Shown piece by piece: positions 1,726 through 37,386 of a stretch of 37,386 bases of DNA. A program made the translations under genes and the position numbers. Source of the stretch: Dehalococcoidia bacterium (GTDB taxonomy: Bacteria; Chloroflexota; Dehalococcoidia; UBA2979); assembly GCA_004297315.1 (NCBI GenBank), contig SCTU01000205.1:1-37386 (forward strand). The letters are read 5' to 3'. Position 1 is the stretch's first letter. The number at the start of each line of letters is the position of its first letter. The notes under the pieces are model-generated. The model ran no database searches. It saw only the letters and a program-made list of their open reading frames with translations, and was not told where the DNA came from.

Positions 1726-1739
1726 AGAACACATGTTCT
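1726..1739. promoter_or_regulatory. LexA operator (Cheo-type SOS box) AGAAC-ACAT-GTTCT
   Basis: Perfect GAAC-N4-GTTC dyad with flanking A/T, 30 nt upstream of the imuB ATG at 1769. GAAC-N4-GTTC is the established LexA box of Gram-positive and Chloroflexi-type lineages, and imuB-dnaE2 cassettes are classical SOS genes. Confidence 0.75.
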
Positions 1740-1768
1740 GGTACCATCCCTCCGCGGGGAGAACCGAG

Positions 1769-2989: not shown

Positions 2990-3288
2990 GCCGCCCGCCC
3001 CAGACCCCGTCCAGTACCTCCCTGCGCCCCATCGGCCTTCCACGCCCGATCGAGGTGCGTGCAGACGGCGACGGCCGGCCGGTCGCCCTCACCCGGACCG
3101 GCACGCGCGGACGACGCGCGGCCGAGACTCCGGTCGAGAGCGTCGAGGAGGTCTGGCGGATTGCCGAGGCATGGTGGCGAGAGGCGCCGCAGGCACGCAC
3201 CTACTACCGCGTCGTCCTCGCGGACGGCCGGCCGCTCTCGATCTTCTACGACGATGCGCTCGGCACCTGGTCCGAGCAGCCGTACTGA
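2986..3288 (+). CDS. Small conserved-looking protein between imuB and dnaE2 (100 aa, WW-x-E...R-x-YYR motif). From memory it resembles ImuB C-terminal or DUF6504-type sequences
   Basis: Same frame as track ORF 2938-3288. The GTG at 2986 overlaps the imuB stop (GTGA), indicating translational coupling. The C-terminal half (VEEVWRIAEAWWREAPQARTYYRVVLADGRPLSIFYDDALGTWSEQPY) has non-random, protein-like composition. It ends 14 nt before the dnaE2 start. Confidence 0.55.
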   Translation: MSRPPQTPSSTSLRPIGLPRPIEVRADGDGRPVALTRTGTRGRRAAETPVESVEEVWRIAEAWWREAPQARTYYRVVLADGRPLSIFYDDALGTWSEQPY

Positions 3289-3302
3289 GCCGGAGGACAG
3301 CG

Positions 3303-7806: not shown

Positions 7807-7808
7807 GC

Positions 7809-8798: not shown

Positions 8799-9703
8799 CG
8801 GACTCTCCGCTTTCGTTGACCCGCCATCCGGACGAGTGCGGAGACCAGGTCGTCCTCGGTGGAGATGGCGAACGGGTCGACGCCTGCTCGCCGGAGGGTG
8901 GCGGCCAACCGCTCTTCGCGGGAGCGTGCCGCCTCCGCGAAGCGACGTCGCAAGACCGGGTCGCTTGAGTCCACAAGGACTTGCTCGCCGGTCTCAGAGT
9001 CCTCGAGCACCATGACACCAACGTCGGGGAACTCGACTTCGCGCGGGTCCCAGACCCGGATCGCGACCACGTCGTGGCGACGGCAGAGCAGTGACAGCGG
9101 ACGTTCCCAGCCCGGTTCGCTCAGAAAGTCCGAGACGAGGAAGACCATCGACCGACGCTTGATCGTGTTGAGCCCGGTCTGGATCAGCCCGTTCAAGTCG
9201 GTCGCCGTACGAGTACGTGCCGGGGGATTGAGCAGTTCACGCACCAGCCGCAGCACGTGCCGGCGTCCACCGCCGGGCGGGACGGTCCGCTCGACGACGT
9301 TGTTGTAGAGGATCGCCCCAACGCGGTTGCCACGGCGGGTGAACAGATGCGAGAGCGTCGTCACCAGGTCGACGAGCACGTGGCCTTTCGTGTGCTCATC
9401 CCGGCCGAACGCCATCGATGGCGACCGGTCGAGCAGCATCCACGCGGTCAGTTCGCGGTCCTCGAGGTACTCCCGGACATAGAGCGTGTGCATGCGCGCG
9501 GTGACGTTCCAGTCGATGTACCGCGCGTCATCCTCAGCCTGATACTCACGCAGGTCGGCGAAGTCCACACCCGCCCCGTAGAAGAGCGTGCGGTAGTCGC
9601 CCTGGAGCAAGCCGTCCAGCCGCCGGACGACCTGCCAGTCCAGCCGTCGGAGGACCTGCTCCGGCGTCGGCTCAGCGGCCGCTGGGGACGACATGCGCTC
9701 CAC
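8795..9703 (-). CDS. DUF58 domain protein (MoxR-operon partner)
   Basis: Motifs GDYRTLFYGAGVDFADLREYQAEDDARYIDWNVTAR are typical of DUF58. The start is either GTG 9703 or ATG 9694; both overlap the end of moxR. Confidence 0.85.
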   Translation of the reverse strand: MERMSSPAAAEPTPEQVLRRLDWQVVRRLDGLLQGDYRTLFYGAGVDFADLREYQAEDDARYIDWNVTARMHTLYVREYLEDRELTAWMLLDRSPSMAFGRDEHTKGHVLVDLVTTLSHLFTRRGNRVGAILYNNVVERTVPPGGGRRHVLRLVRELLNPPARTRTATDLNGLIQTGLNTIKRRSMVFLVSDFLSEPGWERPLSLLCRRHDVVAIRVWDPREVEFPDVGVMVLEDSETGEQVLVDSSDPVLRRRFAEAARSREERLAATLRRAGVDPFAISTEDDLVSALVRMAGQRKRRVR

Positions 9704-10694
9704 GCCTGCTTTCGATCAGGGATGCCTCAGGCAGCGGAATGCCCGGCAAGAGCTGCTCGATCACGCCATCAGCGCTGACGTTGGAGGCGAGCGCCTCGTA
9801 TGACAGCACGAGCCGGTGCCGGAGCACGTCGAACACGAGGTCGCGGACATCCTGTGGCAGCGCGTAGTCACGGCCGCGGATGAAGGCGAGGGCACGCCCT
9901 CCCAGGATCAGGTTGATCGACGCGCGCGGGCTGGCGCCGAACTCGATCAGGCGACGGAGGTCGCCCCGGCCTGCCGACTCCGGGTCACGCGTTGCCCGCG
10001 CCAGCCTGACCGCGTACTCCATCAATGCTGGGTCGACGTAGACAGCGTCTGCGGCCCGCTGGAACGCGAGCAACTGCTCGCCGTCGATGATCTGCTGCGT
10101 CGGCTCGAGCGAGCGTGTCATGCGCTCGACGATGACGAACTCCTCGGTCTGAGTGGGGTAGTCCACCAGGACCTTCAGCATGAAGCGGTCCTGCTGCGCC
10201 TCCGGGAGCGCGTACGTGCCCTCCGACTCGATCGGGTTCTGGGTCGCGAGGACGAGGAACGGGTTTGGCACGAGATGGGTCTCGCGGCCAATCGTTACGT
10301 GCCGTTCTTGCATCACTTCGAGCAGCGCGCTCTGCACCTTCGCCGGCGCGCGGTTGATCTCGTCCGCCAGCAGCAGGTTCGTGAACACCGGGCCCAGGGA
10401 GGTCTGGAACTCGCCCAGTTGCTGGTTGTAGATGCGGGTGCCCGTGAGGTCGGCGGGCACGAGGTCAGGTGTGAACTGCACCCGCCTGAAGTCGCCGCCG
10501 ACCGCCGCGGCCAACGTCTTGATCGCCAGCGTTTTGGCCAGGCCCGGCACGCCTTCGACCAGCACGTGGCCACGGGCAAGCAGGGCGACCAGAAGGCGTT
10601 CGAGGAGCGCGTCCTGCCCCACGATGACCTTCTTCATCTCGTACAGCACCTGCTCCATCGGCCGGTAGCTGTTCGACGGCGGTGCCACAGTCAT
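9672..10694 (-). CDS. MoxR-family AAA+ ATPase
   Basis: ORF 9672-10799. I prefer the ATG at 10694 (MTVAPPSNSYRPMEQV...), with GAGGAG upstream. Walker A is GVPGLAKT and Walker B is LLADEINRAP, followed by VLATQNPIE. Confidence 0.9.
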   Translation of the reverse strand: MTVAPPSNSYRPMEQVLYEMKKVIVGQDALLERLLVALLARGHVLVEGVPGLAKTLAIKTLAAAVGGDFRRVQFTPDLVPADLTGTRIYNQQLGEFQTSLGPVFTNLLLADEINRAPAKVQSALLEVMQERHVTIGRETHLVPNPFLVLATQNPIESEGTYALPEAQQDRFMLKVLVDYPTQTEEFVIVERMTRSLEPTQQIIDGEQLLAFQRAADAVYVDPALMEYAVRLARATRDPESAGRGDLRRLIEFGASPRASINLILGGRALAFIRGRDYALPQDVRDLVFDVLRHRLVLSYEALASNVSADGVIEQLLPGIPLPEASLIESRRGAHVVPSGR

Positions 10695-10713
10695 GACCTG
10701 CTCCTCTGATTCG

Positions 10714-11652
10714 TCATCGCTGCAGTCCGCCGGGGCCGCCTGTCCCGGCGAGCGGTACCGCGAACCCGATGCCGGTAAACGAGCGCTCGCTGGCGGCATT
10801 CGCGAGCGCGGTGACGATCCCGATGACCTGCCCGCGCCGGTTCAGGAGCGGACCGCCTGAGCTACCGGGGTTGACTGCGGCGTCGAACTGGATCAGGCCG
10901 GTCAGTTCGAGTGTGCCATGTCCGGGTGGGATCGTGCGGTTCAGGCCGGAGATCACCCCGGCACTGAGCGAGGCGGTGAGGCCAAGCGGGTTCCCGACCG
11001 CGTACGTCTCATCCCCCACCTGCATGCTCCCCGCGAGGACCGCGGGCACGATGAGTTCCGGCCCGGTGTCGGCGTGCAGGACGGCGAGGTCGTTCGGAAG
11101 GACATTGACGACTTCGGCCCTGGACTCGCTGCCGTCTGCGAACCTCACGGTGATAGTGCGTGCGCCGTCGATCACATGGTTCGCCGTGAGGATCATCCCG
11201 TCGGAGCGGACGATCACGCCGCTGCCGATCCCGGGACCGCGGTCGCCTTTCTCGTCGCCCTCCGTCTGGATGTAGACCAGCGATGGGAGGATAGTCTGGT
11301 ACACCTCGGTCGAATTCGGCGGGGCTTCCGCGGCACGCGCGATCGACGTCGCGACGGCCTCGCGGACGTCAGCCCGGGTGATCGGTGCTGGCTCAGGACG
11401 GAATCCTGCAAAGAGGAGGAGACCGGCCAGCGAGCCAAGGAGGCCGAGGGCGAGTGGCGCAAGCCATTTCCAGCCGATCCGGCGGCGTGCACCACGCTCA
11501 CCCGAATCGCTGCTGCGGCCTTGAGGAGTCACGGACGCGTGATGCGGCACGCTGCCGTGTCGCGTGGGCGATCGAGAGCTGCGTGATGCGGTAGAACACA
11601 CGAAAACGCCGGTGACATTGAGTCTCCGCTGCCGTGGTGGGACGGCGATCAT
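10714..11652 (-). CDS. Membrane-anchored trypsin-like serine protease (S1C/HtrA-like, no PDZ domain)
   Basis: Catalytic triad contexts are TANHVI, NDLAVL and GSSGGP. There is one TM segment (WLAPLALGLLGSLAGLLLFAGF). The stop lies 19 nt upstream of the moxR start. The true start is uncertain because the N-terminal tail is Arg/Ser-rich. Confidence 0.8.
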   Translation of the reverse strand: MIAVPPRQRRLNVTGVFVCSTASRSSRSPTRHGSVPHHASVTPQGRSSDSGERGARRRIGWKWLAPLALGLLGSLAGLLLFAGFRPEPAPITRADVREAVATSIARAAEAPPNSTEVYQTILPSLVYIQTEGDEKGDRGPGIGSGVIVRSDGMILTANHVIDGARTITVRFADGSESRAEVVNVLPNDLAVLHADTGPELIVPAVLAGSMQVGDETYAVGNPLGLTASLSAGVISGLNRTIPPGHGTLELTGLIQFDAAVNPGSSGGPLLNRRGQVIGIVTALANAASERSFTGIGFAVPLAGTGGPGGLQR

Positions 11653-15453: not shown

Positions 15454-15628
15454 TCAGATCTCCTTCCATGCCGTAACTCCCGGTTTCCAAGGGAGCCTCA
15501 GAACCCCAGTGTCTCCGGCACGGTTGCGCCGCGAACGTGATCCACGTCACCCCCCGGCAAGCTGCCACAAAGTCGCAACGGGCACCGTCCTCCTGGTCAG
15601 ATGTCCGACCTCGGATCCTGGCCACTTC

Positions 15629-15644
15629 TGTGAGCTCGATCACG
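15629..15644. promoter_or_regulatory. CRP/FNR-type dyad TGTGA-N6-TCACG
   Basis: TGTGAGCTCGATCACG matches 9 of 10 bases of the TGTGA-N6-TCACA consensus. It lies 47 nt upstream of the crp-family GTG at 15691, in the divergent region shared with the small zinc-finger ORF. An extra TGTGA half-site is at 15648-15652. Confidence 0.4.
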
Positions 15645-15690
15645 TAGTGTGAAAGCCGCGCCTGTAGGCTCAGCACCGGAGGATGGCTCA

Positions 15691-16367
15691 GTGCATGACC
15701 AGGTGAAGCGCGCGCACCTCCGCGAGTCCGAGATCTTCAAGGACCTCACCACGCAAGAACTCCGTGAGGTCGAGACGATGTCGGCGATGACGACGTGCCA
15801 CCGCGGCCGGGTCTTCTTTGAGCCGGACCGTACTGGCGAAGTCCTCTTCATCCTAAGGTGGGGAGCGTCGCGCTCTACCGGATCACCGAGGACGGGCGGA
15901 AGCTTGTCACCGGTACCGTGCAGGCAGGGTCGATCTTCGGCGAGATGGCGATGCTGGGTCAGGCGATGGCTGATTCCTACGCCGAAGCGCTGGAGGACTG
16001 CACGCTCTGCGTCATGTCCCGCGAAGACGTCATCCGTCTCATCGGCCGCCATCCTTCGATCGCGGTGCGCATACTCGACCGCCTCGCAAGCCGGTTGCGG
16101 GAGGCGGAGGAACGCCTCGAAGACGTCGCCTACCGGCCGGTGCCTGCCCGCGTGGCGAATACCCTGCTGCGTCTCGAACAGCAGGGCGAGGTCCACCTAT
16201 CACACCAGGACCTGGCCGAGATCGACGGTACACACCGCGAGACCGTCACCCGGACCCTGAACCAGTTCCGCGCCGACGGCCTCGTCGACCTCGACCGCAT
16301 GGTCGTCCGCATTCGCGACCGGGCCGGACTCACCGCGATCGGCAACGAGACACGCGAGACCGCATAG
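15691..16367 (+). pseudogene. Crp/Fnr-family transcriptional regulator interrupted by a 1-nt frameshift near 15855-15863
   Basis: Frame 1 from GTG 15691 (GGAGGA 7 nt upstream) gives VHDQVKRAHLRESEIFKDLTTQELREVETMSAMTTCHRGRVFFEPDRTGEVLFIL. Frame 0 from 15858 gives GSVALYRITEDGRKLVTGTVQAGSIFGEMAMLG...SHQDLAEIDGTHRETVTRTLNQFRADGLV. Joined, these make about 225 aa, a normal Crp length. The junction is at the G-run CTAAGGTGGGGAGC. This may be a true pseudogene or an assembly error. Confidence 0.7.
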
Positions 16368-16566
16368 CACTCGCACATGCGCGGGGCGCCGCGGCACGGC
16401 GAAGTCCGCGACCGGCTGTTCTCGATGACTGCGACTGACCTCCCCAGGCAGGTGGTGCCCCCCGAGGTGATCGGCGTCACGGATGAGCCCGGAGCAGACT
16501 CGTACGGTCGGATCACGCCCCCCTGAGGGCGCGAATGGTGAACGAGCGCTGGAAGGGGATGACCAG

Positions 16567-27240: not shown

Positions 27241-28071
27241 TCAGGCGGGGCGGCGACGTTCCTCTGTCGCCTGCTCCAGGAACTCATTCCGGCAGCCGCG
27301 TGAGCAGAAGAAGTAGGTGAGCCCATCGCGTTCGCCGTTCACGGCGCGCTCCTGCTCGACGGACATTCCGCACACGGGGTCGGTGGCCATCGTGATCAGG
27401 TCCTTGAATTCGCCGTCCTCGAGCCACAGCACGCGGTCGGCGATGTCTTTGATGCGCTGGTCGTGCGACACGATCACGATGCTGCGGCCCTGCTCCTTCG
27501 CGATGCGGCGCAGCAGGCGCATGATCTCGTGCCCGATCTTCGAGTCGAGGTTCGCCGTCGGCTCGTCGGCGAGGATAAGCGCGGGGTCGTTGGCGAGCGC
27601 GCGCGCGATCGCCACGCGCTGCTTCTCCCCGCCGGACAGTTTCTCGGGCAGGAAGTCGAGGCGGTTGCCAAGGCCAAGGTCGGTCAGCGCGACCGTCGCG
27701 CGCTCGCGCGCTTCGTCTCGTTTCGCCCCCGCCAATTCTGCGACGAGCGCGACGTTCTCCAGCGCCGATAGCGCCGACAGCAGGTTGAAGTCCTGGAAGA
27801 TAAAGCCAAAGCGGGTACGGCGGATCGCCGGGAGTTGACGTTCGTCCAGCGCGGTGAGTTCGAGGCCGTCCAGTTCGATCTTGCCTTCGGTCGGCCGCAA
27901 CAGCGCGCCGAGCATCGATAACAGCGTGGTCTTCCCGGACCCCGACGGCCCCATGATCAGCACCACTTCGCCCTCCGCGACGTCAAGCGAGACGTCGCGT
28001 ACCGCCACGACTTCCGTGGGGCCGGAGCCAAAGCGCTTGCTCACGTGCGAGACTCGCAGGGTGGACGTCAT
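27241..28071 (-). CDS. ABC transporter ATP-binding protein (MacB/LolD-type) with a C-terminal YHS/TRASH metal-binding domain
   Basis: Walker A GPSGSGKT, signature LSGGEKQR, Walker B LILADEPT. The last 49 aa or so (about 27241-27390) read MATDPVCGMSVEQERAVNGERDGLTYFFCSRGCRNEFLEQ, which matches the DPVCGM...YYFCS..C YHS pattern. The ATGA start overlaps the upstream permease stop. Confidence 0.9.
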   Translation of the reverse strand: MTSTLRVSHVSKRFGSGPTEVVAVRDVSLDVAEGEVVLIMGPSGSGKTTLLSMLGALLRPTEGKIELDGLELTALDERQLPAIRRTRFGFIFQDFNLLSALSALENVALVAELAGAKRDEARERATVALTDLGLGNRLDFLPEKLSGGEKQRVAIARALANDPALILADEPTANLDSKIGHEIMRLLRRIAKEQGRSIVIVSHDQRIKDIADRVLWLEDGEFKDLITMATDPVCGMSVEQERAVNGERDGLTYFFCSRGCRNEFLEQATEERRRPA

Positions 28072-29186
28072 CCGGCGCCTCCTTTGAATACGACCGCAGG
28101 GTCGAGGCTCGCGATCTGCCGGATCGGAAGCGCCGCGGAGAGCGCCGCAATCACCAGGGACACTCCAACGGCCTTGAACATTGACGGAGCGCTGATGGCG
28201 AGCGAGATATTCGGCAAGGCGATGGGCACCACCACCGTCAGCAACAGCGTAAGCACGAGCCCCAGCAGGAAACCGGTGACCACGATCGACAGGGCCTGGG
28301 CAACTACCGCGACGTACAGATGGACGTTCCCGGCACCGATGGCCTTCAGCATGCCGTGCTCCGCCCGGCGCGAGAACGTGGCGATGTAGACCGTGAGCGC
28401 CATCACGGCGAGGCCGATCATGAAGCCCACCAGGTTCATGATCGAGCTCACGTCCGTCATCATGTCGTTGACCAGCGCCCGCTCTGCGCGGGCGAAAGCA
28501 TCGCGTGTCTGCGCGGTGGTGCCGGGAGTACTTGCCTCCAGGCGGGCCGCGACCGCCTCAGGAGCGGCGCCAGGGGTGACCTTGACCAGCACATAGCTCA
28601 CCACGGGCGGCCCACCTCGCAACTGGGCGAAGTCCTCGAACGAGACGAATGCGATCGAGTTCGTGAAGTTCGCGGTGCCGCCCGCAAGGCCGCTGATTAT
28701 GAACTCGTGGCCAAGGACCTTCACCCGGTCACCAATCCCCACGCCCGCATCCTCCGCCACCACGCGGTCGATGATCGCCTCGCCCCGACCGGGGATGGAC
28801 TTGCCGGCTGCGATGCGCCAGGGCCCGCCCATCGTCGCGTCGGCGGGCAGTCCGATGATGTAGGCGGCGTGCCGCCCCTCGCCGACCTCGACCATGTTGG
28901 AGAGGTAGAGGATCGGTGTGACCGAGTCGACGTCCGGCAGCCCGCGCAACTCCTCCACGACGGCCGCGGGAAGCGTGGACGTCGCCATGTGCATGTTCCG
29001 CACGCCTGCTTGCGACACGAAGACATCCGCGCCCGACTCCCGCATATACGCGGTGAGACGGCGCTGCGCGCCCTCGACGATCGCGTCAAAGGAGAAGATC
29101 AAGGTGAACGCGAGAGCGACACCGCCGAGCGAAACGGCGAGACGCGCCTTGTTCTGGAGTAGATTGCGGAGCGCGTATCGGAGCAT
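28068..29186 (-). CDS. ABC transporter permease, FtsX/MacB-type (372 aa)
   Basis: N-terminus MLRYALRNLLQNKARLAVSLGGVALA, a large extracytoplasmic domain, and three C-terminal TM helices, typical of FtsX-family permeases. Confidence 0.85.
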   Translation of the reverse strand: MLRYALRNLLQNKARLAVSLGGVALAFTLIFSFDAIVEGAQRRLTAYMRESGADVFVSQAGVRNMHMATSTLPAAVVEELRGLPDVDSVTPILYLSNMVEVGEGRHAAYIIGLPADATMGGPWRIAAGKSIPGRGEAIIDRVVAEDAGVGIGDRVKVLGHEFIISGLAGGTANFTNSIAFVSFEDFAQLRGGPPVVSYVLVKVTPGAAPEAVAARLEASTPGTTAQTRDAFARAERALVNDMMTDVSSIMNLVGFMIGLAVMALTVYIATFSRRAEHGMLKAIGAGNVHLYVAVVAQALSIVVTGFLLGLVLTLLLTVVVPIALPNISLAISAPSMFKAVGVSLVIAALSAALPIRQIASLDPAVVFKGGAG

Positions 29187-29190
29187 CGCG

Positions 29191-30309
29191 TCAGCCTCGG
29201 AAGACGTCGGCGGGTGCCAGCCGCGCGATGAGCCACGCTGGCGCGATTGACGCGAGCACTGCGATCAGAAGGCCGCTCCCGAGACTGGCCGCCACCGTGG
29301 TCGCCTCGACGACTACGAGGAATTGCGGCCGAAGCGCCATGATCAACTGCCCCGCCCCGGCGGCAAGCAAGACGCCAAGTGCGGCCCCGACCAGGGTTGT
29401 GACCAGTGCCTGCGTCGCGACGAGCAGGTAGAGCGTCCTGTTCTCCGCGCCGATCGCCTTGAGCACGCCGTACTCGCGTCGCCGCTCCACTGCCGCCGTG
29501 TAGATCACCAGGCCGACGACCAGCGTGCCGACGAAGAAGGCAATCGTGACCATCAACAGGATCGGGGCGTTGAAGAGCTTCCCCATGAGCGCCTCGTCGT
29601 TGGCGATCATCTGCCTCTTCGACAACGAGTTCGTCCCGGGCACGTCGCGCAGCCGCCCGAGGAGCGCCACGTCCGATGACCCTCGAGCGGGCTCAACGAA
29701 CAGGAAGCTGGCTGTACCGGGAGACACCGACAAGAGGCCTTCGAGGGCGCCCTTCCGGACGAAGAGGTAGTCGACCACGAAGCTGCTGGTCCCGCGCGAG
29801 AGCCCGACGAGTGTGAACGTGCGTCCAAGGAGTGAGAAGCGGTCTCCGACGTGCATGCCGTGACGGCTGGCAAGGACCCGGTCAAAGACGGCTTCATCGT
29901 CCGCAGCCGGGACGCGCCCTTCGCTCAGAAACCACGGTCCGCCGCCGCGCTCTGTCTCATAGCCGATGAGGTACACAGGCTGCTTACGGCCGTGGAGGTC
30001 GAGGATGGCAAACTGCGCGAGGACCGGCGTTACGCGGGCGACGCCATCGATGCGCTGGACAGCCTCATCCGTCCCTGCGGGCAACAGTGAGGTGGTCGCG
30101 AGCAGGTTGCCCACACCCTGCTGAGCCACAACGATCGAGCCGGGCATATGTTCCTGGTAAAGGCCCACCTGGCGGTACATCCCGCCTCGCAGCCCGCTGA
30201 GCAGCACCACGAGCGTCACGGCGAGCGCGACGCCTGCCACACTCAGCCCCAGGCGGGTCCGATTCCGGAGCAGGTTCCGGCTCGCCACGAACAACGTGCG
30301 ACTCGTCAT
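29191..30309 (-). CDS. ABC transporter permease, FtsX/MacB-type (372 aa, paralog of the adjacent gene)
   Basis: N-terminus FVASRNLLRNRTRLGLSVAGVALA with the same architecture. GGAGG lies directly upstream of the ATG at 30309. Confidence 0.85.
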   Translation of the reverse strand: MTSRTLFVASRNLLRNRTRLGLSVAGVALAVTLVVLLSGLRGGMYRQVGLYQEHMPGSIVVAQQGVGNLLATTSLLPAGTDEAVQRIDGVARVTPVLAQFAILDLHGRKQPVYLIGYETERGGGPWFLSEGRVPAADDEAVFDRVLASRHGMHVGDRFSLLGRTFTLVGLSRGTSSFVVDYLFVRKGALEGLLSVSPGTASFLFVEPARGSSDVALLGRLRDVPGTNSLSKRQMIANDEALMGKLFNAPILLMVTIAFFVGTLVVGLVIYTAAVERRREYGVLKAIGAENRTLYLLVATQALVTTLVGAALGVLLAAGAGQLIMALRPQFLVVVEATTVAASLGSGLLIAVLASIAPAWLIARLAPADVFRG

Positions 30310-30318
30310 CCTCCTGAT

Positions 30319-30336
30319 ACTACAGCGTGAAGTAGG
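30319..30336. promoter_or_regulatory. Dyad ACTAC-N8-GTAGG (CTAC-N8-GTAG), candidate BlaI/CopY-family operator
   Basis: ACTACAGCGTGAAGTAGG lies 10 nt upstream of the SD/start of the FtsX-FtsX-ATPase operon, in the region divergent to the Met-rich protein gene. A degenerate copy (CTACTACGGTATGTCGTGG) is at 30456-30474. Confidence 0.45.
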
Positions 30337-30530
30337 TCACCACGGAATCTGGGGCGTTCGCCCCATCTGACGATGTGGCACAGGTAGGCGAACGTCCTCC
30401 TCTTCAAAGGACTTAGGCCCACGCATCAGCCGGTGACAGTGTGCGACGATGTCATCTACTACGGTATGTCGTGGCCTTGCCTCGACACCCGCGCCCTGTG
30501 GGCGCGCGTTCTGGCTGAAAGAGGTGACCC

Positions 30531-30920
30531 ATGGACACACGTGCCCGCGCGATCGTCGGCGTCCTCGGGGCGACGGTCATCGTCCTGGCCGTTGCGCTGG
30601 TCGTGGTGATCGCCCGCGACGATGACGGCAGCACCGCCATGCACGGAGGCACCACGACCCCCTCGATGGGCATGATGCGGGCCATGGGCAACATGGACTC
30701 TGACGCCATGCTCACCCACATGCGCGATGTGCTGGGCAATGACGGATACCAGCGCATGCTCAAGCACATGCAGGGACACCGCGCGGGCGGGCCGATGGCA
30801 GGCGATCCGGCCATCGACGGGATGATGCACCAGATGATGGACGGGATGATGCAGCAGATGCCGGACGACAGCGGCGGCATGATGCCGCGCGCCACTGGCA
30901 CACCGACGGCGACACGCTAG
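30531..30920 (+). CDS. Membrane-anchored Met/His-rich protein (putative extracytoplasmic Cu(I)-binding protein)
   Basis: AAGAGG lies upstream of the ATG. There is one N-terminal TM helix (IVGVLGATVIVLAVALVVVIA). By my count the following 98 residues or so contain about 20 Met and several His, in MxxM / MM / HM clusters (GMMRAMGNMDSDAMLTHM, DGMMHQMMDGMMQQM). Confidence 0.7.
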   Translation: MDTRARAIVGVLGATVIVLAVALVVVIARDDDGSTAMHGGTTTPSMGMMRAMGNMDSDAMLTHMRDVLGNDGYQRMLKHMQGHRAGGPMAGDPAIDGMMHQMMDGMMQQMPDDSGGMMPRATGTPTATR

Positions 30921-31177
30921 CCTCGGCCGGCTGAGGCATGGAGACACCTCGAGTGGACGCGAGGACGACGGACGTCGAAGCCCCCCGGCAGATTTGCCCG
31001 GACAGCAGCCGTCGCAATCCTGCCTTTGAACGCGTCTCGGCCCGCTCCGTCGAAGCCTTCGTGACGGAACAGGGGTTGTTGGACCTCGGCGGCATCCGAG
31101 CAGCCTCACTGGACGCAGCGAGGAACTGACCGTCCGTACGGCTCAGCCGGCTGCGTGACCCTGCAGTCGTGGCCGGG

Positions 31178-33325
31178 TCAGGCCACTTTCTTCCGCTTCA
31201 GTAGTGCGGAATTCACGATGACCGACAGCGAACTAAGGGCCATCGCGGCCGCCGCGATGATGGGGTTGAGCAGGCCGATTGCCGCGACGGGGATCGCTGC
31301 GCTGTTGTAGGCGAGCGCCCAGAACAGGTTCTGTTTGATCTTGAGCATCGTCGCGCGAGAGAGGCGAATGCTCGTCACGACGTCACGCACATCGTCCTTG
31401 ATCAGGATGATGCCGCCCGTCTCTTTGGCCACGTCCGACCCGGACCCGATGGCTATGCCGATGTCGGCGGTCGCGAGGGCGGGCGCGTCGTTCACGCCGT
31501 CCCCGACCATCGCGACGACCTCGCCCGTACGCTGCATCCCGCGGATGACCTCGGCCTTATCCGCCGGCAGGACCTCGGCGATGACACGCTCGATCCCGAG
31601 CTCCGCAGCGATCGCCTGCGCCGTCCGCGGGTTGTCGCCGCTGAGCATCACGATGCCGATCCGGTCCTGGCGCAGGGCGTCGATGGCTTCGCGCGCCTCG
31701 GGTTTGATCGTGTCGGCGACGGCGATGATACCCGCGAGTACGCCGTCGACCGCGAGTAGCATCGCAGTCTTGCCCTGCACCTCGAGGCCGGCCATGGTCT
31801 TCTCGGCCGCGGCGGGATCAATGCCCTCGCGGGTCAGCAGGCGCCGGTTCCCCATCAGGATCGCGTGGCCGTCGCCGCTCCCACGGATCCCGTGCCCCGC
31901 GATGGCCTCGAAGCCGGACACGGCGGGCACATCCAGCCCGCGGTGCGTCGCCGCCTGGACGATGGCGCGCGCGAGCGGATGCTCGGAGCCGGCCTCCACC
32001 GCAGCGGCGAAGCGGAGCAGGTCCTGCTCGGAGACGCCGGCCAGCGGCACGACGTCGGTCACGGCGGGTTCGCCTCGCGTCAAGGTGCCTGTCTTGTCGA
32101 ATACCACCGTGGTGATCTTCTGCGCGCGCTCGAGGATTTCGGCGCCCCGGATCAGGATCCCGGCGTCGGCGGCCTTGCCGACGCCGACCATCAGAGCCGC
32201 TGGGGTGGCAATGCCGAGCGCGCAAGGACAGGCGATGATCAGGACGGCGACAAAGGCGAGCAGCCCCTTCGGGAACTCACCGGCGATCCACCACCCGCCG
32301 AACGCCAGCACAGCGATGCCCACGACGGCGGGGACGAAATACTGCACCACCTGGTCAGCGAGGCGCTGCACCTGTGCCGTGCTCGACTGCGCCTCTTCGA
32401 CCAGGCGCACGATCTGCGCGAGCGCGGTGTCCGAGCCGATCCGCGTCGCCCGGACCCGCAGCATGCCGGTCTGGTTGAGCGTGCCGCCGATCACCGAGCC
32501 ACCCTCGGCCTTTTCGACAGGCATCGACTCACCGGTCAGCATCGACTCGTCGACGGCCGAACGCCCCTCGACGACCGTGGCGTCGGTCGCGATCTTCTCG
32601 CCCGGCCGCACGACGAGGACTTCGTCGACCATGATCGACTCTGCCGGGATCTCTACCTCGGCCCCGTCGCGGACGACGTGTGCCGTCGCCGGCCGCAGGT
32701 CCATCAGCTTTCGGACGGCCGCCGAGGAGCGCGTCTTGATGACCTCCTCCATGTACTTGCCAAGTAGCACGAAGGCGATGATCACCGCCGAGACTTCAAA
32801 GTAGACGTCTCGTTCCTCGATGGACACCGGCAGCACGCGCGGGAAGAACACCACAAAGACGCTATAGACGTACGCCGTCGTCGTGCCGAGGGCGATGAGG
32901 AAGTCCATGTTGATGTTGCGGGTCCGGATCGCCGTCCAACTGCCCTTGTAGAAGGACCAGCCGCCAATGAACTGGACGGGCGTGACGAGGATGAACAGCC
33001 AGCGGCCCCACGTGAACCATGGCAACGCCGGGATCGGCGCCCAGGTCACAATGGTCGCGCCGGCCGCGAGCGCGATGAAGGCGCCGGCTCGGAGGATGGC
33101 GATGGCGACCACGCCGGTCAGCGCGATCGTGACGCGCCTCCGCATCGCCTTGATCTCAGTCTCGGGCGATTCGAAGGTGCGCAGACAGGTCGGGCTGCAG
33201 AAGTAGTAGGTGCGGCCGTTGCGCTCGGCGGTGAGCGCCGTCGACTTCTCGATCACCATGCCGCAGATCGGATCTTTCGCCATCCCGCTCGCGGCAGGCG
33301 GTGACTGCACCGGCGAGATGGTCAT
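31178..33325 (-). CDS. copA: Copper-translocating P1B-type ATPase with an N-terminal YHS/TRASH domain
   Basis: Motifs [24 protein letters not shown] and GDGVNDAP. The N-terminus reads [36 protein letters not shown] (a YHS pattern). No GMxCxxC HMA motif is visible. Confidence 0.92.
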
Positions 33326-33413
33326 CGGTCACCCAGCCGCGAGGTGGCCCGAGGCGTGGTTGCGCGGGCGACCGGGCGGGGCGGCCGCATCGCGAGGGGC
33401 CTGGCACATCTGG

Positions 33414-33560
33414 TCATTTCTTGATGTACCGCCCCGGGTCCTGCTGGAACTGACGCGCACACGAGTCACTACAGAAGTAGTACGTCTTGCCTTGCCACTC
33501 AGTCGACGCCGCGGCCGACTTGGGCTCCACATTCATCCCGCAGACAGGATCACGCGCCAC
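33414..33560 (-). CDS. 48-aa stand-alone YHS/TRASH domain protein (not in the ORF track)
   Basis: My translation from the GTG at 33560 is (M)ARDPVCGMNVEPKSAAASTEWQGKTYYFCSDSCARQFQQDPGRYIKK*. The start is 3 nt after the SHOCT gene stop, with GGAAGGGA upstream. Confidence 0.7.
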   Translation of the reverse strand: MARDPVCGMNVEPKSAAASTEWQGKTYYFCSDSCARQFQQDPGRYIKK

Positions 33561-33563
33561 CGC

Positions 33564-33833
33564 TCACCGTCCCTTCCCGCGTTCGGGCTGCTCGCCGAGG
33601 TCTGCGACGATCTGCAGATAGCGCTCGCGGTCGAGGTCACCTCTCGCGTAAGCGCGGCGGGCGATCTCCAATGCGTCATGGTCGGGAGGGGGCGGTGGCG
33701 GCGCGTCGTGACGGCGCCCGAGTTGCGTGGCGATCCACCACCCACCGATCAACAGCGGCAGCCACATGACTGCCATCATGAAGGTCATCCAGAGCCACGC
33801 CCAGCCGCCGAAATCGCCATTCCAATACCACAT
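33564..33833 (-). CDS. SHOCT-domain membrane protein (89 aa)
   Basis: Track ORF 33564-33914. I prefer the ATG at 33833 (MWYWNGDFGGWAWLWMTFMMAVMWLPLLIGGWWI), with GGAG 7 nt upstream. It has a poly-Pro linker and then ALEIARRAYARGDLDRERYLQIVADL, a SHOCT-like C-terminal motif. Confidence 0.65.
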   Translation of the reverse strand: MWYWNGDFGGWAWLWMTFMMAVMWLPLLIGGWWIATQLGRRHDAPPPPPPDHDALEIARRAYARGDLDRERYLQIVADLGEQPERGKGR

Positions 33834-33855
33834 GGCTGCGCTCCGATGTCTTGCT

Positions 33856-33873
33856 CCTACAGGCCATAGTAGT
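33856..33873. promoter_or_regulatory. Dyad CCTAC-N8-GTAGT (CTAC-N8-GTAG), candidate BlaI/CopY-family operator
   Basis: CCTACAGGCCATAGTAGT lies 23 nt upstream of the SHOCT ATG, in the 106-bp gap after doxX. It is positioned to control SHOCT-YHS-copA. Confidence 0.45.
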
Positions 33874-33939
33874 CGGCTCAACTGGCGCCCGGTCAGGGAC
33901 GTTTGACCCACCAATCATGGGACATCCGGCTACCGGCGA

Positions 33940-34632
33940 TCAGCTGGCATTGTGACGCCACGTCGCCCCGGTCGTGACGATCAGCGCCAGTACGGCCATT
34001 GCTGCCCAAGTCTCCGCCCCCGAAACCGCCAGGGCGAGCGCTGCGGCGGCGAGCAACGCGAGCACGAAGAGCATCTCGTGCCCCAGCCGCTTTACCTGTC
34101 CCGGCAGACGGGCCGCCGCCCATGGGACCCCCCAACCGTCGAGGCCGAACCGGCCCGCGTGATGGCCAAAGAACGCCAGCGCGAGGCCCAGGAGCAGCAT
34201 CGGCGGGTTGGTGGACGTCGTCCCAGCCCAGACAAAGGCGAGGTTCATGGTCACGCCGGCGAGCGCGGAGAATCGCGTGAGCAGCCCCACAATCAGGGCG
34301 ATCCCCACGAGAAGCTCGCCGTAGGTGACCAGCACCGCGAGCAACGTCGCGTTCGGAAGAAAGACCTCCTGGACGAGCGTGTGGTACCAGTGCGGGACCT
34401 CCGGATGCGGCCCCGCGGTCGACTTTGCGATCGCGCCCTGCAGGAATCCGCTGATCGCCTTGCCTCGCGGCTCCGCCGTCCAGCCGGGGTCGTCGAGCTT
34501 CTCCCACCCCGCGCGGACCCAGGACACTCCGAGCACGAGGCGAATGAACAGCCACGCCCCGGCCTCGAACCGCCACAGCGACGGCCGTGCGGGCGCCCCG
34601 ACGCTCCCGGTAGGTGCCGGGTGAGGCCTCAC
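33940..34632 (-). CDS. DoxX-family membrane protein
   Basis: The GTG start overlaps the upstream stop (GTGA). The multi-TM profile includes LFIRLVLGVSWVRAGWEKL and LVTYGELLVGIALIVGLLTRFSALAG, typical of DoxX/DoxD. Confidence 0.8.
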   Translation of the reverse strand: MRPHPAPTGSVGAPARPSLWRFEAGAWLFIRLVLGVSWVRAGWEKLDDPGWTAEPRGKAISGFLQGAIAKSTAGPHPEVPHWYHTLVQEVFLPNATLLAVLVTYGELLVGIALIVGLLTRFSALAGVTMNLAFVWAGTTSTNPPMLLLGLALAFFGHHAGRFGLDGWGVPWAAARLPGQVKRLGHEMLFVLALLAAAALALAVSGAETWAAMAVLALIVTTGATWRHNAS

Positions 34633-35036
34633 GGTGCCACCGTGCCCGAGGCGCCCAGCCCTTCGTGCCCGGGATGGTCCGTCGAGTGCGCCTCGGGCTC
34701 CGCGAGCCGCTCGCGGATGGCCGGGCCAACCCAGACCGTCGAGACGGTGAACAAGATGGCGAACACGAGCACGGCAATGCCCGGTGCGACCCAGGTGCCG
34801 AAACGACGCCGAAGTCGCAGTAGCGACGGCACCATGAGGAGCAGCCCGATCGCACCAAACACCACGGTGCCGGTGAGCCCCGAGACCACGGCGGCACCAG
34901 CGATTGGGCCAACGTGGTGAAGGACGTGCGGGGCGATCCCGCTCGCTGCCCCGATGGCCCCCGCCAGTGCGACGCGGAGCCGGACTCCGGGGCCGCGTCG
35001 TGGGACCGTGTCCAGCGTGCGTGCGGTGATGCTCAT
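34629..35036 (-). CDS. Hypothetical membrane protein with HVLHHVGP and C-terminal His-rich motifs
   Basis: Track ORF 34629-35102. I prefer the ATG at 35036 (MSITARTLD...). About four TM helices are predicted by eye. It carries an H-x2-HH motif at the first TM helix and the tail EAHSTDHPGHEG. I do not recognise a family. Confidence 0.5.
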   Translation of the reverse strand: MSITARTLDTVPRRGPGVRLRVALAGAIGAASGIAPHVLHHVGPIAGAAVVSGLTGTVVFGAIGLLLMVPSLLRLRRRFGTWVAPGIAVLVFAILFTVSTVWVGPAIRERLAEPEAHSTDHPGHEGLGASGTVAP

Positions 35037-35157
35037 GCGGAGCCTCGTCGACCGAACGAGCCGACCTCGATGGACCGGACCGCCTGATCCTACACGAACC
35101 ACGACCGTCGGTAGTAGTTGTGCGACGATCGCGAAGCAGAAGTCAGAGAGGCCGCAA

Positions 35158-35964
35158 CTAACCGAGATGGGGGCAGGCGACGCAGAAGATACCGGTCCAG
35201 ATCAGCGCATGGGCGAGGAGGGGCAGTCCGAACAGCCCCGCGAATACCGGCGCCGCCTGCCGCTCGCTGACGAGAGGCGGGGTCTCAGGCTGCGCGAGCC
35301 ATGCCAGCCGCTCAGCCGTGCCGACGCCGGACAACGCTGCCCCACCCGCCGCGACGCCTGCCGCGCCGACGATGGCCTCGAACAGGTCTTCGCGTCTGGC
35401 GCCCGCCGCGAGGGCCGCGCTGTCGGCGCGCCACTCCATCTCAATCCTCAGGCTGCTGAACAGGCGCCGCGCGCCGGGGAATGCGCCGACGGCGGCTTCC
35501 GCGAGGGAGACCAGCGCCAGCCAACGCACGTCATGGTGGGACATATGCGCCCGTTCGTGCAGCAGCGCAGCATGCAACGCCCCGGCATCGAGCGTTTGCT
35601 CGGCGCCAGCCGTTGCGTAGATCACGGGCTGCCGGAGGCCGGCCGTGAAGAGCGCCACCTGGGTGCCGGGCACACTGACGTAGCGGACACCTCCGGAACT
35701 CTGCGGCAGGCCCTGCCGTGTGAGTGCCGTGAGACAACGCTCGGCGACTATCCAGCGGACCGCCCCGCGCCCGAGGCCGATGAGGGGCAGAAGGGAGACC
35801 GCGCCCAGCACGGACAATGGGATGAGATCGAGGTGCGCTCCGAGATGTGGTGCGGCGCCAGAATGGGATGCGACCGCGGGGGCGAGCATGTGGGCAAAGG
35901 CGAGCGGGAACGCGACTCCGCCGAGGACCGCGACGGCCAGTGTCGCGCGCGCGCCGGTACTCAC
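35158..35964 (-). CDS. M56-family (BlaR1/MecR1-like) membrane zinc metalloprotease lacking an extracellular sensor domain
   Basis: The GTG start overlaps the repressor stop (GTGA). The HEXXH motif is LLHERAHMSHHD. The protein is 268 aa with TM helices. The N-terminal His cluster is AHMLAPAVASHSGAAPHLGAHLD and the extreme C-terminus is IFCVACPHLG. Confidence 0.8.
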   Translation of the reverse strand: MSTGARATLAVAVLGGVAFPLAFAHMLAPAVASHSGAAPHLGAHLDLIPLSVLGAVSLLPLIGLGRGAVRWIVAERCLTALTRQGLPQSSGGVRYVSVPGTQVALFTAGLRQPVIYATAGAEQTLDAGALHAALLHERAHMSHHDVRWLALVSLAEAAVGAFPGARRLFSSLRIEMEWRADSAALAAGARREDLFEAIVGAAGVAAGGAALSGVGTAERLAWLAQPETPPLVSERQAAPVFAGLFGLPLLAHALIWTGIFCVACPHLG

Positions 35965-36344
35965 CGCCGCATCCTCAGTTTCGACCGAAGCGTGGCGACC
36001 ATCTGCGGGTCGAGGCGGTTCGCCTCCGCGAGAAATGCTCCGACGCCGGCGGTGCCGAGGTCGACCAGGACGGCGGCGAGGGATTCGGCGCGACGTTCGG
36101 CGAACTCCTCGCGCGTCATCGCGGGAGCATAGAGGTGGCTCCGTCCGCCGGCACGCCGCACGACGAGCCGTTTTACCGTGAGCCGTTGAAGCACCGTCAA
36201 GATCGTGGTGTAGGAGAGGCCACGCGGCGTCCCCACGCGCTCGTAGGTCGCCGGGGTTGAGAGTTCACCCTCGTCCCAGAGTGCGTCCAGCACAGCGGCT
36301 TCCAGTTCGCCCAGTGGTTGAAGAGGGTTCCGCTTTCGTGCCAT
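35961..36344 (-). CDS. BlaI/MecI/CopY-family winged-helix transcriptional repressor (no cysteines)
   Basis: LGELEAAVLDALWDEGELSTPATYERVG...LSYTTILTVLQRLTVKRLVVRR is typical of the penicillinase-repressor family. It is 127 aa, contains no Cys, and lacks the CopY C-terminal CxCx4CxC motif. Confidence 0.85.
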   Translation of the reverse strand: MARKRNPLQPLGELEAAVLDALWDEGELSTPATYERVGTPRGLSYTTILTVLQRLTVKRLVVRRAGGRSHLYAPAMTREEFAERRAESLAAVLVDLGTAGVGAFLAEANRLDPQMVATLRSKLRMRR

Positions 36345-36367
36345 GACGACATCGTACCAGCAGCAAC

Positions 36368-36381
36368 ATGGCGATCGCCAT
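36368..36381. promoter_or_regulatory. Perfect 14-bp palindrome ATGGCGATCGCCAT in the divergent repressor/cupredoxin promoter region
   Basis: Self-complementary over all 14 nt and directly abuts the CTAC-N8-GTAG dyad. Its function is unknown. Confidence 0.3.
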
Positions 36382-36383
36382 CA

Positions 36384-36401
36384 ACTACGACAGCACGTAG
36401 T
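36384..36401. promoter_or_regulatory. Dyad ACTACG-N6-CGTAGT (CTAC-N8-GTAG), candidate autoregulatory BlaI/CopY-family operator
   Basis: Perfect 6-bp inverted repeat ACTACGacagcaCGTAGT, 40 nt upstream of the repressor ATG (36344) and 51 nt upstream of the cupredoxin GTG (36452). Confidence 0.5.
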
Positions 36402-36451
36402 ATCATTGGGCGTGGCGGAAGCCCCGCCCCCACCGATGGAAGGATCGCCGA

Positions 36452-36928
36452 GTGCCGGCAGTCATATTGCGGCGCGTCTCCCTCGTCGCTTCGCTCGTGG
36501 CCGCCGCCCTGGTCGCCGCCTGCGCGGGCAGCGACCAGGGCGGCGGCGCAGGTTCGTCTGCTTCCAGCGCCAGTCTGGTCACGGTTGTGGCAACGGATCT
36601 CGCGTTTGAGCCTCGAGAGGTCCGCATCGCCGCTGACCAGCGCGTGAGCGTGCGGCTCAAGAACAAGGGGAAGGTTCTCCACGACTGGACCATCGAGCGC
36701 ATCCCAGTGACCGGAGTCGAGATGCGAGCGTCCGATAACCATGCGATGGAGCCTGGCGGCGGCATGGTGTCCGGGAGCGCAGGCCCTGGTGAGCTGCACA
36801 TCGCCGCCGAGGTGGGCCGAACGGCGCAGATCACCTTCACACCGAAACAGCCCGGCGAGTACGTCTTCTACTGCACGGTGGCCGGCCATCGGCAGGCAGG
36901 GATGCAAGGCAGGCTGGTCGTCGGATGA
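36452..36928 (+). CDS. Cupredoxin (type-1 blue copper) lipoprotein
   Basis: GGAAGGA lies 7 nt upstream of the GTG at 36452. The lipobox is LVAACAG. The copper ligand pattern is H (VLHDW) ... C-x4-H-x4-M (FYCTVAGHRQAGM). Confidence 0.85.
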   Translation: MPAVILRRVSLVASLVAAALVAACAGSDQGGGAGSSASSASLVTVVATDLAFEPREVRIAADQRVSVRLKNKGKVLHDWTIERIPVTGVEMRASDNHAMEPGGGMVSGSAGPGELHIAAEVGRTAQITFTPKQPGEYVFYCTVAGHRQAGMQGRLVVG

Positions 36929-37314
36929 GGCGCTGGCGCAGCATGACTCGGTGGAGACTCCGCGTGGCGATCGCGCTCGCCGCGTCCGTTGCCGTCGCAG
37001 GCGCGTGCGGGGGAGGCTCAGAGCCTGCTCCCGCGTTCACGGGGACCGATGGCGCCGCACTCTACGCTCAGGCCTGCGCCTCGTGTCACGGTGCCGGCCT
37101 GCGAGGCACGAAGCAGGGCCCGCCCTTCCTGGACGCGATCTACCGTCCGGGGCATCACGCCGACGCGGCGTTCTTCCTTGCGGTGAAGGGCGGCGCACGC
37201 CAGCACCACTGGAACTTCGGAAACATGCCGCCGGTCCAGGGCCTCAGCGACCCACAGATCGAGGCCATCGTCGCCTTAGTCCGAGAACGACAGCACGCCG
37301 CCGGCATCGACTGA
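36925..37314 (+). CDS. Class-I c-type cytochrome lipoprotein
   Basis: The ATGA start overlaps the cupredoxin stop. The lipobox is VAGACGG, the haem site is CASCH, and the candidate distal Met is in GNMPP. Confidence 0.85.
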   Translation: MRRWRSMTRWRLRVAIALAASVAVAGACGGGSEPAPAFTGTDGAALYAQACASCHGAGLRGTKQGPPFLDAIYRPGHHADAAFFLAVKGGARQHHWNFGNMPPVQGLSDPQIEAIVALVRERQHAAGID

Positions 37315-37386
37315 CGGCCCATCAGGGTTGGTCACTGCACCGGTCGGCGCGACGCACATCGCAATCGCGCCCGGAAACGCAACCTC

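Follow-up and report, generated by a model that had tools for sequence, protein, structure and literature searches.

Near one end of a 37,386-nt stretch of DNA from a Dehalococcoidia bacterium (phylum Chloroflexota; contig SCTU01000205.1 of assembly GCA_004297315.1; the entire stretch is referred to below as the window), two overlapping genes encode a cysteine-free repressor of the BlaI/MecI/CopY superfamily and an M56-type membrane metalloprotease devoid of a sensor domain. On balance, this pair probably is a copper-responsive switch that, in the manner of BlaR1 and PetP, derepresses a copper-detoxification regulon by proteolysis, although our confidence in the chain as a whole is modest. That the pair regulates the copper island in which it is embedded can be stated with greater confidence, and that the particular His and Cys residues named below bind copper, with less; copper as the signal, the ligand role of these residues and cleavage as the output are all inferred. 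A proteolytic copper switch is not new in kind, the precedent being the cyanobacterial PetR/PetP system; what is new is the Chloroflexota family, the His/Cys candidate ligands and the efflux targets.

The regulator, as a preliminary description of the window had it, is a 127-residue protein without a single cysteine. It belongs to the BlaI/MecI/CopY superfamily, matching Pfam Penicillinase_R (PF03965) over residues 11-123 with a score above the gathering threshold (E = 8e-20; 71.7 bits against a cut-off of 22.6). The nearest solved structure is 2G9W (E = 1.5e-12, or 1.3e-17 with a profile), which we take to be Rv1846c of Mycobacterium tuberculosis, and the profile of the regulator family also matches BlaI (1SD4) and MecI (1OKR) of Staphylococcus aureus. 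An identity with CopY/TcrY (TIGR02698) was ruled out on the lack of cysteines and on the score (27.7 bits against a cut-off of 121.95). The CopY/TcrY proteins of Firmicutes share with the window regulator the superfamily, a related type of operator and the control of copper P-type ATPase operons, but CopY is itself the Cu(I) sensor, by way of a C-terminal CxCx4CxC motif, and has no protease partner. Such binding is not available to the regulators of the present family, because none of the 11 (the window protein and 10 relatives) contains cysteine and the only invariant His, H70, lies within the DNA-binding domain. The same facts count against the idea that the regulator itself is the metal sensor, with ligands other than Cys, and that the protease only removes repressor that is metal-bound or off the DNA, or fixes its basal rate of turnover. 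The authors of the PetRP study raise this idea for PetR in the part of their report considered here, and it agrees with the stronger conservation of the regulator (55-93% identity among the family loci) compared with that of the protease (35-80%). However, the conserved His and Cys residues that are specific to the family sit on the protease, and we regard a sensing regulator as distinctly unlikely.

In the regulator family, A103-F104...E107 are invariant and occupy the position of the BlaI cleavage site in a hidden Markov model (HMM) alignment. The A-F motif is found both in the window regulator (GAFLAE) and in PetR (AAFAD), and is aligned to the segment LNFAKNE of S. aureus BlaI, which contains the N101-F102 scissile bond.

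The stop codon of the regulator gene and the GTG start codon of the protease gene overlap as GTGA (35961-35964, minus strand), with GAGGA located about 10 nt upstream, and this overlap of 4 nt recurs in each of 10 related loci. Judging from this arrangement, the overlap is a translational coupling of the two genes, as originally proposed. The protease matches Pfam Peptidase_M56 (PF05569) slightly below the cut-off (E = 2e-6; 27.5 bits against 31), and no further domain was detected. It has the hallmarks of the M56 family, namely a membrane-embedded gluzincin domain with HEXXH and a downstream EXXXD, which are also the gluzincin motifs of BlaR1 (PMC9834060). Residues H136, E137, H140, E177 and D181 are conserved in all 68 representatives of the protease family in the alignment from which all residue counts given here were taken, an invariance that points to an active protease under selection. 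A domain search of the 268 residues detected no penicillin-binding, transpeptidase, beta-lactamase or other sensor domain, and the chain ends at residue 268, 4 residues past the last transmembrane (TM) helix. In most BlaIR-like systems, the sensor domain is absent and the signals are unknown, so that the lack of such a domain in the window protease is not unusual. The description of a sensor-less 268-residue M56 protein with HERAH, an N-terminal His cluster and the C-terminus IFCVACPHLG is thus borne out by the sequence and by Pfam. The preliminary description also allowed for an anti-repressor, that is, a protease that does not cleave the regulator but sequesters it at the membrane. Although membrane sequestration of regulators is known elsewhere, we consider this highly improbable: the catalytic residues are invariant, the region aligned to the BlaI scissile site is the most conserved C-terminal motif of the regulator, and PetP and BlaR1 both work by proteolysis.

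An AlphaFold2 model of the protease, computed from a 19-sequence alignment (pLDDT, the per-residue confidence score, 81; pTM, the global one, 0.78), was compared to the PDB with Foldseek, and the top match was S. aureus BlaR1 (8EXQ; probability 1.0), followed by ZMPSTE24/Ste24 and HtpX. A search of PDB sequences with the profile of the protease family yielded nothing significant, BlaR1 being recovered by fold comparison only. Hydropathy predicts three TM helices (approximately residues 5-32, 41-66 and 237-267), the last of which is present in the AlphaFold2 model. Across the family, Lys and Arg residues number 4.69 after TM2, 0.66 in the TM1-TM2 loop and 0.19 in the tail. This distribution, together with the need for the protease to reach a cytoplasmic DNA-binding substrate, supports a topology with the N-terminus inside, the loop outside, the protease domain inside and the C-terminus outside. 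The His loop and the Cys/His tail are accordingly predicted to be extracytoplasmic or to lie in the outer leaflet, opposite the cytoplasmic HEXXH domain; the topology check that had been suggested for the two candidate metal sites therefore came out in favor of the original proposal.

The two candidate sites differ in conservation. The N-terminal part of the protease contains FAHMLAPAVASHSGAAPHLGAHLD, and residues 24-46 read AHMLAPAVASHSGAAPHLGAHLD; at the other end, the motif CVACPH is encoded at positions 35167-35184. H25, located at the end of TM1 and preceded by a conserved Pro, is present in 63 of the 68 representatives; H252, in the last TM helix and likewise preceded by a conserved Pro, in 64; C261, the first Cys of the tail, in 60; and at least one additional His in the TM1-TM2 loop, in 67. 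The second Cys, C264 (25/68), and the tail His, H266 (26/68), are limited to the subclade nearest the window. The expectation that both the His cluster and the CxxC-His tail would be conserved among orthologs thus holds for the former and for the first tail Cys but fails for the rest of the tail, and CxxC-His is, in this alignment, a subclade elaboration on a family-wide His...His...Cys signature. A reading of CVACPH as a heme-c attachment site (CxxCH) was rejected because the spacing of the His varies between 1 and 3 residues among homologs (CVACSH, CAFCAHH, CAICLQH, CAICSTTH).

The limited spread of the second Cys also matters for the possibility that the module senses not copper but a consequence of metal or oxidative stress, either the extracytoplasmic thiol/disulfide state, via C261-x2-C264, or general envelope damage, and that it turns on a stress island in which copper genes happen to be included. 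CxxC is a classic redox motif when placed at the outer face of the membrane, genes of the DoxX family accompany the pair, and the sensor-less CenIR and PvmSR systems answer to unknown, apparently non-metal cues. Nevertheless, this possibility appears rather unlikely, given that the link to copper genes extends to members of the family with a single Cys or with none, and that the putative targets overwhelmingly handle metals (the P1B ATPase, three YHS domains, the cupredoxin and the Met/His-rich protein).

A further connection between the pair and the copper island comes from intergenic DNA. When the regulator/cupredoxin intergenic regions of three loci were aligned, TACTACSnnnTGTCGTAG stood out as conserved; an inverted-repeat search of the intergenic regions had missed this dyad, its arms being too short. 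In the window, five matches with at most 3 mismatches were found where 0.28 would be expected; in 100 shuffles, five was never reached. All five (O1-O5 in Table 1) lie in promoter-proximal intergenic DNA, each in front of copper genes, in line with the original claim of a copper island whose promoters share a dyad. O1 overlaps a conserved -10-like element, GTAGTATCAT, on the cupredoxin side; O2 has an equivalent at positions 10843-10860 of locus L002 (fetched loci are designated by L and a number); and O4 and O5 are both located in the divergent region that separates the Met-rich protein gene from the ABC exporter. The cited -10-like boxes were picked out visually in conserved columns of the alignment. 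Related dyads of the form TACTAC-N5-GT(C/A)GTA precede the regulator gene in most of the family loci.

The family extends beyond the window. Homologs on other contigs are 50-82% identical over the full length, which indicates that the open reading frames (ORFs) are real genes. A word-indexed search retrieved 19 close relatives, all of 264-272 residues, and an exhaustive HMMER search of 1.84 billion representatives yielded 55 clusters (at 50% identity) with E <1e-10, almost all of 260-277 residues. The members found in genome collections all come from metagenome-assembled genomes (MAGs) of Chloroflexota (Dehalococcoidia, Tepidiformaceae and Anaerolineae). The copper context was assessed by comparing the neighbor proteins of the window with all fetched loci using tblastn. 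YHS, CopA, DoxX or cupredoxin genes adjoin the pair in 11 of the 12 family loci of at least 7 kb, and in two shorter loci as well, so that the survey of neighborhoods proposed at the outset supports an association with copper genes. By contrast, in an outgroup of about 15 BlaI-M56 pairs (regulators 32-39% identical), copper genes are absent except for one CopA-like match. In the nearest subclade, at 50% protease identity, the whole arrangement is kept, with cytochrome c and cupredoxin genes divergent from regulator, protease, membrane protein, YHS, DoxX and, further on, ATPase genes. On the contig of L009, a second, more divergent BlaI-M56 pair (15508-16528) is found about 8 kb from the copper-linked one.

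The closest functional parallel is PetRP of Synechocystis sp. PCC 6803. According to the parts of that study on which we draw (Garcia-Canas et al., 2021; bioRxiv 10.1101/2020.07.31.226407), PetR is a BlaI/CopY-family protein without the cysteines of CopY; PetP, an M48/M56 protease whose start overlaps the stop of petR, has four TM helices and lacks a penicillin-binding domain; degradation of PetR in cell extracts needs PetP and copper together; the regulon consists of petE and petJ (plastocyanin and cytochrome c6) and two small genes, with copper homeostasis stated to be outside its control; and two conserved methionines in the TM2-TM3 loop of PetP are proposed as copper ligands. In a July 2026 review, the mechanism of copper sensing by PetP and its localization are still listed as open. 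For comparison, PetP and PetR were recovered from two cyanobacterial genomes (L021 and L048), and an alignment of PetP was built.

The two systems have much in common. In each, the gene of a regulator without a Cys motif overlaps that of its partner, an M48/M56 protease of about 280 residues with no sensor domain; the neighbors or targets include a cupredoxin and a c-type cytochrome; the operators have a 6-N5-6 layout and share a TGTCGTA half-site (TAYGAC-N5-GTCRTA for PetR in the dataset of the PetRP study); and candidate ligands occur both in the loop before the protease-entering helix and at the extreme C-terminus. Alignment of the window protease family with PetP by hhalign (probability 96.9%, E = 1.4e-10, 177 columns, 21% identity) places TM2 of the window protein on TM3 of PetP, and the His loop would hence be the positional counterpart of EL1 of BlaR1 and of the Met loop of PetP. 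The differences are equally clear: three TM helices in the window protease but four in PetP; His/Cys candidate ligands rather than Met-x5-Met (M55 and M61, both invariant); Chloroflexota rather than Cyanobacteria; and a predicted regulon that exports and detoxifies copper (P1B ATPase, YHS, Met-rich protein and ABC exporter). The cupredoxin and cytochrome c of the window do share operator O1, yet the host is a non-phototroph and the other predicted targets are efflux genes. The window regulator is 30% identical to PetR. Orthology with PetP was rejected, considering the 21% identity, the score (about 30 bits, compared with 44-50 bits against generic M56 proteins of 300-350 residues) and the loop that contains His and no conserved Met; the low identity and score instead indicate a separate branch of sensor-less M56/BlaI modules. 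The BlaR1-BlaI-style copper relay put forward in the preliminary description is thus backed by the computational checks and by the PetR/PetP precedent, but the concept itself had already been published in 2021.

Some features of the cyanobacterial sequences can be recorded here. The extreme C-terminus of PetP reads ...LLPLxxVPFH, with P277 and H279 invariant in 21 of 21 sequences (e.g., L021:4533-5375 and L048:3001-3843). As candidate copper ligands, the discussion of the PetRP paper mentions the two methionines alone, and not the C-terminal VPFH. In L021 (4001-4533) and L022 (4001-4240), petR is called as a truncated and apparently frameshifted ORF, through either an assembly error or pseudogene formation, the C-terminal part being readable in another frame in L021.

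With BlaR1/BlaI and MecR1/MecI of staphylococci and Bacillus licheniformis, the window pair shares a cytoplasm-facing gluzincin domain, an extracytoplasmic signaling loop before the protease-entering helix, and a winged-helix dimeric repressor in which a conserved motif falls at the cleavage position. In BlaR1, EL1, the loop between helices 2 and 3, is the signaling element that contacts the sensor domain, and helix 3 joins it to the protease (PMC9834060). Unlike BlaR1 and MecR1, the window protease has no C-terminal penicillin-binding (class D beta-lactamase-like) sensor domain, and, in place of four TM helices with both termini outside, has three hydrophobic segments, with the N-terminus predicted to be inside and the C-terminus outside, the counterpart of BlaR1 TM1 being absent. 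No beta-lactamase or PBP2a gene is present near the window pair. Mycobacterial BlaI/BlaR (Rv1846c/Rv1845c), CenIR of Clostridioides difficile and PvmSR of Pseudomonas aeruginosa also have sensor-less M56 partners but no known metal signal or metal-gene context, and, in the sequences examined, they lack the H25/H252/C261 signature.

Taken together, these comparisons suggest the following scheme. In the absence of the signal, a dimer of the Cys-free regulator would occupy the 17-bp TACTAC-N5-GT(C/A)GTA dyads, which overlap the promoters in four places (at the cupredoxin/cytochrome c operon, at the membrane-protein/DoxX genes, at the YHS/CopA genes and in the Met-rich-protein/ABC-exporter region), and would thereby keep these promoters repressed. 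The 268-residue M56 protein would act as the receptor, its gluzincin domain (HERAH...ExxxD) being inserted between TM2 and the C-terminal TM helix and H25, H34, H41 and H45, along with H252, C261, C264 and H266, being placed in or at the outer leaflet. Copper bound to this His/Cys set could replace the contact between EL1 and the sensor domain of BlaR1 and might shift the helix that leads from the loop to the protease, activating cleavage of the repressor near the invariant A103-F104. Cleavage would then abolish dimerization and DNA binding, so that efflux is derepressed.

Several observations weigh against this scheme. All members of the family come from MAGs or metagenomes. The CxxC-His tail is not family-wide, and the copper-linked loci L006 and L009 lack any tail Cys. 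H252 lies some 9-12 residues further into the helix than the Cys pair and is, by helix geometry, too deep for a common site with C261/C264; H25 may be its partner instead. Sensor-less M56 proteins in copper-free contexts also have His/Cys C-terminal tails (Acidobacteriota, ...VFHCG), which implies that the role of the tail may be general, structural or signaling, rather than copper-specific; a His/Cys tail alone is no evidence for copper. To our knowledge, extracytoplasmic thiolate ligands are unusual among copper sensors, and the CxxC could be redox-active. Among the dyads, three of the five carry 2-3 mismatches, and these weaker sites are operator candidates only. Finally, a scan of positions 30250-37386 for the sigma-70 consensus found no promoter.

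Table 1. Features of the regulator-protease pair and the adjacent copper island in the window (aa, amino acids).
Feature	Position	Strand	Evidence or remark
Regulator gene; BlaI/MecI/CopY-family winged-helix repressor, 127 aa, Cys-free	35961-36344	-	
Protease gene; sensor-less M56-type membrane zinc metalloprotease, 268 aa, cytoplasmic gluzincin domain	35158-35964	-	
End of TM1 and extracytoplasmic loop (predicted) with H25, H34, H41, H45	35830-35892	-	Counterpart of BlaR1 EL1 and PetP Met loop
HERAH zinc-binding/catalytic motif (H136, E137, H140), residues 136-140	35545-35559	-	Read from sequence
E177-x3-D181 (E177WRAD181), second gluzincin motif	35422-35436	-	Read from sequence
Outer half of last TM helix and tail, H252...C261-V-A-C264-P-H266	35167-35211	-	Alignment, AlphaFold2 model
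O1, TACTACGTGCTGTCGTAG, exact match	36385-36402		Divergent regulator/cupredoxin intergenic region; conserved in three loci
O2, operator-like, 2 mismatches	35099-35116		Between protease stop and next gene; directly upstream of TAGGAT -10-like box
O3, weak operator-like, 3 mismatches	33854-33871		20 nt upstream of probable start of SHOCT-like/YHS/CopA genes
O4, operator-like, 1 mismatch	30457-30474		57 nt upstream of Met/His-rich protein gene
O5, weak operator-like, 3 mismatches	30318-30335		Directly upstream of MacB-like ABC exporter operon
c-type cytochrome (CASCH), putative target	36925-37314	+	Pfam Cytochrom_C, E = 6.5e-13
Cupredoxin, probable lipoprotein signal, putative target	36452-36928	+	Pfam Cupredoxin_1, Copper-bind; NCBIfam CopI, E = 3e-16, below cut-off
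Small membrane protein, HVLHHVGP motif, first gene past protease	34629-35036	-	Probable start M23 of 157-aa ORF
DoxX/DoxD-family membrane protein	33940-34632	-	Pfam DoxX, E = 3e-10; syntenic in L001, L002, L004
Small membrane protein, SHOCT-like C-terminus (weak)	33564-33833	-	Probable start M28 of 116-aa ORF; syntenic in L002
YHS/TRASH metal-binding protein, 48 aa	33414-33560	-	Pfam YHS, E = 1.8e-16
P1B-type ATPase, 715 aa, N-terminal YHS	31178-33325	-	Pfam E1-E2_ATPase, Hydrolase, YHS
Signal-anchored Met/His-rich protein, 129 aa (MGMMRAMGNMDSDAM..., DGMMHQMMDGMMQQM)	30531-30920	+	ORF list
MacB-like ABC exporter: two FtsX/MacB_PCD permeases and ATPase with C-terminal YHS	27241-30309	-	Domain search

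Apart from that of the pair, no regulator gene was seen in the island, from 27.2 kb up to the window's end (37.4 kb). The divergent synteny with the cupredoxin gene is kept in L001, L002, L004 and L024, the closest subclade, and the same four loci have, in the same position as in the window, 65-77% identical copies of the small membrane protein encoded next to the protease; this protein has no Pfam or NCBIfam match and could belong to the sensing or transport machinery. The P1B-type ATPase possesses, as read from its translation, the CPC, YN and MxxSS motifs that form the signature of Cu(I)/Ag(I) exporters, and we take it to belong to the P1B-1 subgroup of the established classification. Its N-terminal YHS/TRASH domain stands in place of the usual HMA domain (MxCxxC), and the homolog in L001 contains cupredoxin-like and HMA domains. 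The Met/His-rich protein is, from its composition, a probable extracytoplasmic binder of Cu(I); a 216-residue ORF on the opposite strand (30459-31109) was rejected as a compositionally spurious, wrong-frame artefact in favor of the plus-strand ORF. The fusion of YHS to the ATPase of the MacB-like exporter is unusual and hints at metal-gated or metal-related export.

Elsewhere in the window, an ImuB-like (IMS family) gene followed by a gene for a DnaE2-like DNA polymerase III alpha subunit (1733-6689, plus strand) resembles a damage-inducible mutagenesis cassette. Genes for a MoxR AAA ATPase, a DUF58 protein and two VWA/BatA proteins (6739-10799, minus strand) form a Bat-like, aerotolerance-type operon, past which a trypsin-like protease and a PAS histidine kinase are encoded. 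Rfam and tRNA scans of the whole window produced no matches.

Outside the Chloroflexota family, sensor-less M56 proteins are found next to other genes. In MAGs of delta-proteobacteria and Myxococcales (L016:7157-15516, L018, L019 and L020), BlaI is paired with a sensor-less M56 protein of 334-365 residues that has a Cys/His-rich loop and a His-rich tail. Located 3' of each of these proteases, on the same strand and tightly packed, are genes for a TolC-like protein, a CzcB-type adaptor and a CusA/CzcA HME-RND pump (about 1190-1200 bits against a cut-off of 701); in L016, the RND genes are followed by a gene for a DmeF Co/Ni exporter of the CDF family (433 bits; cut-off 250). The regulator genes of this group are preceded by TACTATCGACGGTCGTAG. 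The gene order suggests a second, non-copper use of the module in metal efflux, and no paper describing the Czc-linked module was found. In a further set, of Acidobacteriota type (L012, L013, L035, L037 and L042), the sensor-less M56 proteins have at least approximately 313 residues and all end in ...VFHCG(G/R/P); one annotated neighborhood, that of L013, contains no metal genes.

The Czc- and DmeF-linked pairs show that the scaffold is used with different metals and thereby raise the question of whether the window pair responds to a soft or borderline metal other than copper (Ag, Zn, Cd, Co or Ni), in which case the copper genes would reflect the specificity of the pair only in part. Zn and Ni, moreover, bind well to His-rich sites. 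Nevertheless, the ATPase bears the Cu(I)/Ag(I) signature, the cupredoxin and the Met-rich protein are typical of copper, and a Czc/DmeF search of the window found no match, so that the island contains no Zn, Co or Ni exporter; another metal as the cognate signal thus seems quite improbable. As far as these genomic contexts go, the range of metal-linked BlaI/M56 modules appears to be wider than PetRP, and nothing beyond PetRP on control of CopA or Czc by BlaI/M56 was found in the open-access literature.

A broader and more tentative proposal, which may well prove wrong, is that sensor-less M56/BlaI pairs constitute a widespread, unrecognized class of transmembrane metal sensors, in which an EL1-like loop together with C-terminal His, Cys or Met residues makes up the whole sensor and is tuned by lineage. 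If so, His/Cys ligands would go with CopA-type copper export in Chloroflexota, a Cys/His loop and His-rich tail with CzcCBA/DmeF in Myxococcota-like bacteria, and, in cyanobacteria, Met/His with plastocyanin. On this view, the Chloroflexota family would be the first case of a BlaR-type sensor in direct control of copper efflux and would add a further class of copper-efflux regulators to CueR, CsoR, CopY and CusRS/CopRS, while also providing a pointer to the copper site of PetP. The family represents an independent case with a clearer genomic read-out, since the regulator is the only one seen in a copper-export island, and its candidate outer-face ligands are few and explicit (H25, the loop His, H252, C261, C264 and H266) and can be mutated individually. 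Confirmation of the switch would extend BlaR-type proteolytic signaling from the choice of cofactor in cyanobacteria to copper detoxification in another phylum and, considered with the Czc-linked pairs, would suggest a general metal-sensing role of minimal M56 proteases. The value of the pair lies in a tractable second system for how such proteases sense metals.

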